Shown: piece after piece, positions 2,128 to 4,222 of the stretch | How positions within the stretch are numbered: the stretch's first letter is position 1 | Layout: every line of letters starts with the position of its first letter | Origin: an uncultured bacterium | Lineage (GTDB): Bacteria; Muiribacteriota; Ozemobacteria; Ozemobacterales; Ozemobacteraceae | Reading direction: 5' to 3' | NCBI GenBank assembly: GCA_964472075.1 | Contig: CAYYIY010000001.1 | Coordinates: 295-64,294, forward strand | DNA: 64,000 nucleotides | The notes under the pieces: generated by a model | Databases searched by the model: none | What the model saw: only the letters and a program-made list of their open reading frames with translations | Told to the model about the DNA's origin: nothing | Made by a program: the position numbers and the translations under genes

Positions 2128-2774
2128 TGTCGAACCTCGTGAGTACGATTTTCGTATGTCCGAGTGCTCATCTCGAGAGAGTAGCTTTCGAAGGGCGTCA
2201 GCAATTCTCGTATTTCATCTTCGATGGCAAAATGCGTGATTCCCTCACCCGCATACGGGCCGGCGGAAATGTCGGTGTATGTCCGGGGTTCGATCTGACG
2301 CCCGAGCCCATCACCCCATGAGCCGTGTGCCAGCATCATCGAGAAGAATCTCCCGCCTGGTCTAAGAACTCGATGAATCTCGTAAAAGATGGCTCGCATC
2401 GAAGCCATGCGGTTTTGCTGAATAGCCGCGATATCGATCACGCCGTCAAACGATGCGGTTTTCAACGGCAGATGAAGGAGATCGGTCTGCGCCCAGGTTC
2501 CAGACAGCCGTTCGGCGGTTAACCGTTCGTGCGCCAGCTGCAGTGCTGTGGGCGAACCGTCGATGCCGGTGACGGAAAAGCCTTCACGAGCAAGATACCA
2601 GCAGCAGGAACCCGGCCCGCAGCCGGCATCGAGCAGTCTTACCGCTTTGCGATCGGGAGCGCGATAGAAAGAGCGGGCAACAAAGCGAATCAGTTCTTCC
2701 GGTGGATACTTTCCCCATGCACGAGTCCGAAAGATTTCTTCCCAGACCGGGTCCCAGCTGGTGTGAGCCATCAT
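2103..2774 (-). CDS. class I SAM-dependent methyltransferase
   Basis: A 223-aa ORF with the SAM-binding motif LLDAGCGPGSCCWYLAREGFSVTGIDGS and a post-I acidic residue. Its ATG overlaps the intI stop (ATGA). Confidence 0.8.
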   Translation of the reverse strand: MMAHTSWDPVWEEIFRTRAWGKYPPEELIRFVARSFYRAPDRKAVRLLDAGCGPGSCCWYLAREGFSVTGIDGSPTALQLAHERLTAERLSGTWAQTDLLHLPLKTASFDGVIDIAAIQQNRMASMRAIFYEIHRVLRPGGRFFSMMLAHGSWGDGLGRQIEPRTYTDISAGPYAGEGITHFAIEDEIRELLTPFESYSLEMSTRTYENRTHEVRHWIITATR

Positions 2775-4222
2775 CGGTCACCAGCCTTCGGCGACTTGCC
2801 GACTCGAGCGGGCCGAACGGGCAACGAGCGAGAGGCAGCCCGACTGCCGAGCACAGGCCTGGTCTGAAGCGGCGGGATTCCGGGCAGATCGAGCGGACTG
2901 ATGACCGTGACTCCGGGGCGTTTGAGCACATGGGTGTAGATCATGGTCGTGCTGACATCTGAGTGACCAAGGAGTTCCTGAACAGTGCGGATATCGTGCC
3001 CATGTTCGAGCAGATGGGTGGCAAACGAGTGACGCAGCGTGTGAACACTGGTCGTCGCCGGCAGACCGGCTGCATGAACCGCCGCTTTCACGGCTTTCTG
3101 AAGCGAGTTTTCATGAACATGGTGACGACGGATTTTACGCGATCGCGGGTCAGGTGAAAGTTTCGACGAGGGGAACACATACTGCCACTGGATATCGCGT
3201 GATGCGGACCTGTACTTTCTGTCAAGCGTATCGGGCAGAGCGACCTCGCCGTAGCCGAGTTTCAGATCCTGCTCATGAAGAGAACGCACGCGTTCGATCT
3301 GTTCGGCCAGTGCACGTTCGAGCGTGCGCGGCAAGGGCACCACTCGGTCTTTTCCGCCTCTTCCCTCTCGGACGATGATCTGATGTTGCTGGAAATCAAC
3401 ATCCTTGATACGCAGACGCAGACATTCCATGAGTCGCATGCCGGTTCCGTAGATCAGTTCAGCCATGAGGCGCGGAGTGCCGTCGAGGTGGTCGAGCAGA
3501 TCTCGCACCTGTTCCCGGGTCAGAACCGCCGGAATTCGCTGGGGCACCTTGGCGCGGACAATTCCGTCAAGTGAGCCCGGAGGAAGCTGCAGTACATGTT
3601 GATAAAGAAAAAGCAGCGCATGCATTGCCTGATTCTGCGTGCTTGAACTCACTTTTGCCTTGAGCGCGAGATGCGTGAGAAACGCCTGAATGTCGCCCTC
3701 GCTCAGATCGAGCGGCAAACGCGGGTGATGGAAGGCAAAGAATCTCGCCGCCCAACTGAGGTAAGCCTTTTCGGTTCGAATGGAGTAGTGTCGCACGCGC
3801 ACTTCGTTGCACAATCGGCTCATGGCCGCCTTCACATCGACAGGACAAGCCGTGGCAGTCAAAGCACCCGTTGTTTTTCCTGCAAGGTCGGTGCGCGCTT
3901 CATCGACAGACGGTCTCTGCGGCCAGTGTTTCGCCCAATCAGCCCGCAATACCTCCTGGAACAACACTCGCAAGGTCATGTCAGCCTGTTCGATCTGCCA
4001 TGGTTGAATGCGATGATTGCCGATCAATCGATCGAGAAACGTGAGAATGTGTCGACTCTTCACCTGCGGTAACGGAATTCCGTGCAGAAACCGGCCGAAC
4101 TGCACCGCCCAGTTGAGGCAAAAATCAATCTGCTTTTCCGGCACTTTCCGATGCCGCAACGTCTCGCCGAGTGCCTGCAACACTCGCTCATCAAACACCG
4201 AGCCGTTTTCCATGTTGCTCAA
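2771..4222 (-). CDS. intI: integron integrase (IntI family tyrosine recombinase) with duplicated N-terminal core-binding domain
   Basis: A 483-aa ORF. The C-terminal 340 aa align by eye to IntI1, including the IntI-specific insert (LPDTLDRKY...[28 protein letters not shown]) and catalytic boxes ([36 protein letters not shown]). The extra N-terminal 140 aa repeat the SAM-like core-binding fold. Confidence 0.9.
   Translation of the reverse strand: [483 protein letters not shown]

Follow-up and report, generated by a model that had tools for sequence, protein, structure and literature searches.

We analysed an integron integrase gene, intI, in a 64-kb stretch of DNA from an uncultured bacterium of the family Ozemobacteraceae (contig CAYYIY010000001.1); the whole stretch of 64,000 nucleotides is referred to below as the window. 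We consider it probable, at roughly 0.6, that this gene is intact and belongs to a large clade of long-form integron integrases that looks to have had a single origin. The C-terminal ~320 residues of its product are a standard IntI, composed of a core-binding domain, a catalytic domain and the IntI-specific insert. Ahead of them stands a second four-helix domain, which arose through duplication of an IntI-type core-binding domain. Models of integron recombination rest on integrases with two domains (IntI1 and VchIntIA).

A duplicated core-binding domain precedes a canonical integron integrase

The model TIGR02249 ('integron integrase') matched residues 135-445 of the window protein with 447.8 bits (cutoff 265), and residues 141-445 were aligned with residues 13-318 of VchIntIA (PDB 2A3V) at 289 bits (phmmer), with the IntI-specific insert included. 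An earlier sequence-only reading of this DNA had called the C-terminal part a canonical IntI carrying that insert, and these matches confirm it. PF00589 scored 140 bits over residues 233-434, and PF13495 (Phage_int_SAM_4) was present as two stretches. Plasmid copies of IntI1 aligned with residues 127-470 at ~48% identity (tblastn), leaving residues 1-126 unmatched. Against the NCBIfam Xer models the protein fell far under the cutoff; Xer recombinases (XerA, XerC/D) share the two-domain core and gave the next-best sequence and structure matches, but they have neither the IntI insert nor the duplicated N-terminal domain. The catalytic residues R263, K291, H394, R397, H420 and Y429, mapped via the 2a3v alignment, are all present and occupy invariant or near-invariant columns. 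The IntI-specific segment (residues ~316-352) shows one single-residue gap relative to 2a3v; Messier and Roy reportedly described this additional segment of the catalytic domain in 2001, and in VchIntIA it is said to be the I2 helix. An AlphaFold2 model of the full protein, run with a 115-sequence alignment, had a mean predicted local distance difference test score (pLDDT) of 87 and matched 2A3V with a template-modelling (TM) score, TMt, of 0.83 (Foldseek). By homology with VchIntIA, the IntI core should recombine folded single-stranded attC sites.

The window protein has the same catalytic residues, insert and core-binding motifs as canonical IntIs (VchIntIA/IntI4, 2A3V; IntI1). It differs from them in ~127 extra N-terminal residues, in a 37-residue C-terminal tail and in having no attC array or attI that was recognised. 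Starting instead at an ATG at 4213, three codons in from the annotated TTG, the product would have 480 residues, and a database protein is 100% identical to it. Across 123 alignment columns that are at least 90% conserved, the window protein differs at five (W15L, L200M, K288R, E343D and N434K); the family median is two deviations, and 16 of the 114 homologues have five or more. On this comparison the window integrase appears to lie within the family range and is not obviously decaying.

The sequence-only reading had also proposed a second core-binding domain within the first 140 residues, and profile comparison and structure prediction both bore this out. A Pfam search with residues 1-133 alone gave a match to PF13495 of 32.5 bits and E 1e-7, above the gathering cutoff of 27, that took in positions 2-84 of the 85-position profile. 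Compared with each other by BLASTP, the two halves of the window protein gave an E of 7e-4. Family alignments were made from 28 sequences of the extra domain (the N-domain) and from 30 of the canonical core-binding domain; hhalign matched them with a probability of 98.1% (E 1.1e-13) and reproduced the originally suggested pairing of segments. The AlphaFold2 model repeats the four-helix set in both domains: helices 12-24, 29-45, 56-68 and 74-91 of the N-domain are mirrored by helices 128-143, 148-164, 175-187 and 193-210 of the canonical domain, with low pLDDT at linker residues 115-121. Modelled alone, the N-domain reached a pLDDT of 96. Its top PDB match was the N-terminal domain of 2A3V (TMq 0.74, root-mean-square deviation 2.3 Å, 83 columns), followed in order by XerA, an archaeal Xer, the lambda Int core-binding domain, XerD and Cre.

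In the 115-sequence alignment the N-domain has the consensus FW..Y...RWY..WA..F...WQ..QA..AL.ILF...WA, and its conserved residues are mainly aromatic or hydrophobic. At the beginning of helix 4, Q76 and Q79 are each kept in at least 90% of the family, and Q79-A80 pair with Q198-A199 in the canonical STQNQA motif. RHYSIRTE, which is basic and invariant in the canonical domain, is missing from the N-domain consensus. The mean net charge across the family is +3.5 for the N-domain and +2.5 for the canonical core-binding domain. That the first 140 codons are coding is supported by their conservation in hundreds of homologues and by a fold predicted at pLDDT >90; the internal M134, a candidate alternative start, is not conserved.

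Distribution and integron context of the long forms

The sequence-only reading knew of no described IntI with this architecture, a view that did not survive comparison with public data, where it is common. In a collection of 5.8 billion proteins, the best matches were hundreds of proteins of 440-484 residues, aligned over 85-92% of the query with the N-domain included. Several of these homologues, from metagenome-assembled genomes (MAGs) of Nitrospirae and Gammaproteobacteria, are labelled 'integron integrase' by NCBI/RefSeq or JGI, and the N-domain is carried by 113 of the 115 aligned sequences. A search with an N-domain profile against 1.84 billion cluster representatives (clusters at 50% identity) returned 969 clusters at E<=1e-10, with the domain N-terminal at positions ~5-100, and 4,517 when the limit was relaxed to E<=1e-3. 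Among the best 150 listed clusters, the top-scoring stretch lay at ~5-130 in all except one, a 915-residue protein with 13 stretches; most of the 150 had an additional weaker stretch, which we took as the canonical domain.

In a sample of 80 IntI loci from GTDB species genomes, clear tandem architecture was seen only in L001 and L026 (loci are cited by our own numbers), and L045 is a diverged long form. The long form is a minority among IntI-bearing species, yet a large family in absolute terms. At another of the 80 loci, from a MAG of Planctomycetaceae (L053 5606-6972), the N-domain lies in one frame (5606-5980) and the remainder of intI in another (5839-6972), which could reflect a linker frameshift, a sequencing error or a split gene. 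A neighbour-joining tree was built from the core alone (core-binding plus catalytic domain, CB+CAT; 312 columns). In it, 115 long forms made up one pure clade with 54 short forms outside, and this clade took in L001 and L026, which were drawn from an independent genome sample.

Longer integrases have been reported before. Nemergut et al. (2008, BMC Genomics 9:261; PMC2426708) described 'clade 15' IntIs that are ~120 amino acids longer and ascribed them to a single gene fusion; they regarded the clade 15 genes as possibly functional, and listed proteins >20% larger than IntI1 among candidate pseudogenes. The size of that extension and the proposed single origin resemble those of the long forms studied here. 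The nature of the extension is not stated in that paper, and its Deltaproteobacteria sequences are likened to the present clade by description only. Full-text literature searches found no paper identifying or testing a duplicated N-terminal domain of IntIs. As far as the literature searched shows, longer IntIs have been known since 2008, and what their extension is and does is apparently undescribed.

Long forms occur beside cassette-associated sites. In Candidatus Thiodictyon syntrophicum Cad16T, a 485-kb plasmid (pTs485) encodes a long form of 454 amino acids, annotated by RefSeq as an 'integron integrase' (WP_269467352.1); upstream of its gene lie divergent small open reading frames (ORFs) together with five sites of 96-97 bp whose boxes are of the GCCTAAC/GTTAGGC type. 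A home-made attC scan with a strict threshold, at least 6/7 for R''/R' pairs, detected GCCTAAC...GTTAGGC-type sites in 26 short-IntI loci and in 0 of 12 long-IntI loci. The idea of a long-form clade without cassettes was nevertheless dropped as an artefact of scan sensitivity, since intergenic folding, a relaxed scan and the Thiodictyon plasmid reveal sites. Upstream of long intIs, folding of intergenic DNA uncovered attC-like hairpins that have R boxes as well as 5-nt spacers; L086 1673-1735 (GCCTAAC...GTTAGCG, z -3.3) and L088 510-599 are examples. Several long intIs lie at contig ends, beside small divergent ORFs.

Three side observations concern these loci. Group II intron reverse-transcriptase genes are found within the small-ORF arrays upstream of long intIs (L084 4507-5793; L090 1-445; L091 1812-2899). 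Locus L081 has two identical 39-bp palindromes (TTGAATTGAATAACCTG-N5-CAGGTTATTCATTTTAA) at 41-79 and 3284-3322, 3.2 kb apart, which bracket a NotI-type restriction-modification pair and small ORFs immediately upstream of the long intI. Lastly, stand-alone N-domain genes were considered as evidence for a fusion partner and rejected. Short 'hypothetical proteins' bearing only this domain turned out, for the three whose loci were fetched (P0423, P0441 and P0400; four loci, L089-L092), to be pieces of frameshifted or degraded long intIs, and in L090 and L091 successive ORFs bear the N-domain, SAM_4 and Phage_integrase.

Surroundings of the window gene

In the window, intI is in an In0-like state, without a detectable attC array. 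On one side it is flanked by an APH(3') gene and a tRNA-Leu gene, and on the other by a string of methyltransferase, GNAT and M20 genes (Table 1).

Table 1. Features of the integrase gene and its flanks, in window coordinates.
Feature	Position	Strand	Remarks
M20 amidohydrolase, truncated by window edge	2..1042	-	TIGR01891 315.6 bits
GNAT (Acetyltransf_6) protein	1039..2127	-	PF13480 48.7 bits; FemAB 20.4 bits, under cutoff 24
S-adenosylmethionine-dependent methyltransferase	2103..2774	-	Methyltransf_25/11; ATG overlaps intI stop
Long-form integron integrase gene (intI)	2771..4222	-	483 codons, TTG start at 4222
Non-conserved C-terminal tail and stop codon	2771..2887	-	residues 446-483; stop is the TGA of ATGA 2771-2774
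Catalytic domain	2888..3526	-	residues 233-445; PF00589; insert at window 3167-3277
Canonical IntI core-binding domain	3587..3841	-	residues 128-212; RHYSIRTE and STQNQA motifs; strong PF13495 stretch 137-213
Linker	3842..3925	-	residues 100-127; weakly conserved; 6-61 residues across family
Extra SAM-like four-helix core-binding-like domain	3926..4189	-	residues ~12-99
intI upstream region	4223..4460	.	repeats, palindrome, shared block
Long imperfect palindrome, 120-140 bp	4467..4610	.	minus-strand fold -40.7 kcal/mol, z -4.07
APH(3')-family aminoglycoside phosphotransferase gene	4611..5405	+	divergent from intI; NF033068 239.7 bits, cutoff 205
tRNA-Leu(CAG)	5474..5563	+	begins 68 bp past APH stop

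The APH protein is 55.5% identical to the clinical APH(3')-IIIa, and its gene has a G+C content of ~47% against ~57% in the surroundings. The gene occupies the first-cassette position beside intI, and no attC was found after it. With the tRNA-Leu gene lying so close beyond the APH stop, the space open to cassettes is bounded, and the 86 nt across the APH stop and the tRNA start showed no fold. Neither of two crude home-made scans, nor folding, turned up an attC between intI and tRNA-Leu or anywhere else in window 1-10000, and the same crude scans detected no attI R box between intI and tRNA-Leu. The long palindrome at 4467-4610 has an attC-like layout of R box, 5-nt spacer, L box and long stem. 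Only one R box can be recognised in it (GTTATAG, minus strand), and neither attC scan called an element there. This palindrome may be a decayed attC.

Closer to intI, the exact 12-mer TATGCATAACAG occurs twice, at 4305 and 4368, and GCATAAC has no other occurrence on the same strand in the 64 kb. A perfect palindrome, TGCATAA-N4-TTATGCA, is found at 4307-4324. The upstream region of the window intI shares with those of the related long intIs at L081 and L083 a block, TTCTGCATA(A/G), followed by a CATAAT/TATAAT-like hexamer, and the repeat/palindrome motif upstream of the window intI overlaps this block. The motif as a whole (window 4296-4395) is probably the intI promoter and operator rather than a set of arm sites. 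The sequence-only reading had suggested looking for a LexA box upstream of intI; a search with nine known motifs at up to two mismatches gave none that was convincing, and the motif of Riflebacteria may differ.

Within 200 bp upstream of intI, 8/14 long-form loci and 11/47 short-form loci have a palindrome that no more than 2% of shuffles attained (Fisher p 0.02). The long-form palindromes are locus-specific, with arms of 11-23 nt (L081, L084, L085, L088, L089, L090, L092 and L173). This excess could be taken as a weak hint of accessory sites, in a small sample and with no link established. L173 has, besides, a ~135-bp attI region full of ACTAG-core repeats.

On the downstream side, the intI stop and the methyltransferase start do share an ATGA at 2771-2774, as had been pointed out. 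Two further overlaps had been described in the gene string: the GNAT and M20 genes indeed meet in an ATGA at 1039-1042, and the 25-nt overlap of the methyltransferase and GNAT genes is conditional on TTG 2127 being the real start. The intervening protein, proposed to be a FemAB-like acyltransferase, is placed as a GNAT by PF13480, has only a weak, sub-threshold FemAB match and has no NCBIfam match. A 351-residue ORF at 26-1081 on the plus strand is an antisense shadow of the M20 amidohydrolase gene.

The window integrase runs 37 residues past the family end, counted beyond the position aligned with residue 447; the corresponding overhang in 114 homologues is 1 residue at the median and never exceeds 19, and family proteins stop 0-3 residues past an SPxD motif. 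The tail is Pro/Arg/Ser-rich, with a pLDDT mostly <50. As read from the sequence, the ~110-nt G+C-rich stretch ahead of the ATGA is stop-free in every frame, so that read-through needs no special explanation. The window copy reads 37 codons beyond the normal family end, through what would otherwise be intergenic DNA, and in this way arrives at the stop/start overlap. At each of the related long-intI loci examined (L081, L083-L088 and L173) the downstream genes vary, and none has methyltransferase, GNAT or M20 genes downstream of intI. A GNAT query against metagenome contigs found no relatives, none of 80 loci of M20 homologues had a methyltransferase or a GNAT gene as neighbour, and a promoter/terminator scan around intI was uninformative. 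Because the tail is non-conserved and of low confidence, and because the downstream genes differ among related loci, we conclude that the overlap is most plausibly a local accident of the window copy rather than a regulatory design, with coupling incidental. Read-through transcription from intI into the methyltransferase gene is possible. The downstream genes were also considered as cassettes of an inverted integron, which is ruled out by the overlapping junctions, as they leave no room for attC.

Further along the window are genes of other kinds. Large hybrid histidine kinases and response regulators are very densely packed in 9067-32940 and 36948-42167, together with two ~1000-residue SpoIIE-type phosphatases; the domains in this run are PAS, GAF, MEDS, SBP_bac_3, NMT1, HD and HDOD. 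Two PhaC-like alpha/beta hydrolase genes occupy 42239-44451. On the minus strand, 46050-49193 holds two adjacent ATP-citrate lyase-domain genes, of which one has the ATP-grasp and citrate-binding domains; a reductive tricarboxylic acid cycle is suggested by this pair. The ATP-citrate lyase is 96% identical to a Candidatus Ozemobacteraceae protein, and the next named matches are from Riflebacteria, which places the host as a MAG of Candidatus Ozemobacteraceae (Riflebacteria).

Possible roles of the extra domain and status of the window gene

We propose that the extra domain could be a tethered accessory nucleic-acid-binding module that would no longer read the core site and could add contacts at attI accessory repeats, the attC hairpin or the intI promoter; to this we give somewhat less than an even chance. 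The domain does not look like a second sequence-reading surface because the fold, the positive charge and Q-x-x-Q-A are kept but RHYSIRTE is lost. The accessory-site hypothesis is drawn from analogy with heterobivalent recombinases. Smyshlyaev et al. (2021; PMC8138268) class integron integrases among the 'simple' recombinases, which possess no domains beyond the core-binding and catalytic ones, whereas heterobivalent ('complex') recombinases such as lambda Int and Tn916 Int (PMC8138268) have, like the long IntIs, three modules, the N-terminal one on a flexible linker. The arm-binding domains of lambda Int and Tn916 Int belong to Pfam clan CL0081, whereas the extra domain of the long IntIs is a four-helix SAM-like homologue of the core-binding domain. 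It is not of the arm-binding type, being all-helical and matching the core-binding domains of IntI, XerA and lambda Int. The wider proposal, that the duplicated domain is a clade-wide innovation providing a second tethered nucleic-acid-binding module, and so a lambda Int-like bivalency made from a recycled core-binding fold, is more tentative, and we would sooner expect it to fail than to hold.

Several points weigh against our reading of the gene and its domain. No attC was found in the window, which leaves the recombinase activity of this copy as a prediction. The tree carries no support values, and the long forms sampled for it are mostly nearest neighbours of the query, for which reason a single origin is graded as likely. 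W15, a Trp in at least 90% of the family, is a Leu in the window protein, and a Shine-Dalgarno-like GAAGG stands 5 nt upstream of the internal ATG (M134), so that a short isoform is conceivable. The canonical basic residues are absent from the extra domain, and with this a protein-protein or autoinhibitory role appears equally compatible. The domain would then bind no nucleic acid; it could, for instance, cover the C-shaped clamp as an autoinhibitory pseudo-substrate cap, or offer a scaffold to the synaptic tetramer or to a host factor. The mainly aromatic and hydrophobic conservation and the missing RHYSIRTE-type motif would suit such a role, and the flexible linker would permit intramolecular docking. 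We think it on balance unlikely, given that the N-domain exceeds the canonical domain in mean charge, that the polar Q76 and Q79 are so well conserved, with Q79-A80 aligned to STQNQA, and that no conserved partner gene lies near the related long-intI loci examined.

Other explanations concern the window copy itself. It might be an inactive In0 relic, its cassette array and stop codon lost, on the way to becoming a pseudogene. The failure to detect an attC or attI R box before the tRNA-Leu gene, the C-terminal read-through peculiar to this copy, the substitutions W15L and K288R at conserved positions and the frequency of frameshifted long-intI pseudogenes elsewhere would all fit; the ORF is nevertheless unbroken for 483 codons, with its catalytic residues complete and its deviations within the family range, while the attC scans were crude and a degenerate attC-like palindrome exists at 4467-4610. 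We therefore regard decay as doubtful, slightly more so than a purely protein-binding domain. Much less probable is that intI has been recruited into a metabolic operon and is genuinely co-expressed with the methyltransferase, GNAT and M20 genes. Four co-oriented genes whose junctions are ATGA or otherwise overlap, with nothing terminator-like between them, do have the look of an operon, as the sequence-only reading had concluded when it proposed translational coupling to a biosynthetic operon; this is not supported as a functional design, since the overlap hinges on a disordered tail unique to the window copy and there is no downstream synteny, either at the related long-intI loci examined or around the 80 M20 homologues. 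Least probable of all is that residues 1-133 are untranslated and the product is an ordinary short IntI starting at M134. This residue is 8 residues ahead of the RHYS motif, near the VchIntIA start, and has the Shine-Dalgarno-like sequence in front of it. Against this stand the score of residues 1-133 above the Pfam gathering cutoff, the confidently predicted fold, the lack of conservation of M134 in homologues and the presence of the N-domain in ~1000 clusters, where it invariably shares the reading frame of the core.

In summary, the window alone provides a modest result, namely another cassette-less member from a poorly studied phylum. The larger matter is the family, in which a large conserved clade with a third domain, with at least one member beside a canonical attC array, exposes a gap in what is known of integron integrases. 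If the extra domain binds DNA, the long forms would represent an independent route to bivalent tyrosine recombinases, and this could explain differing attI architectures and the control of cassette capture in environmental bacteria. Accessory binding at attI repeats or palindromes, or at the attC hairpin, could then change site choice, directionality and regulation in ~1000 lineages.

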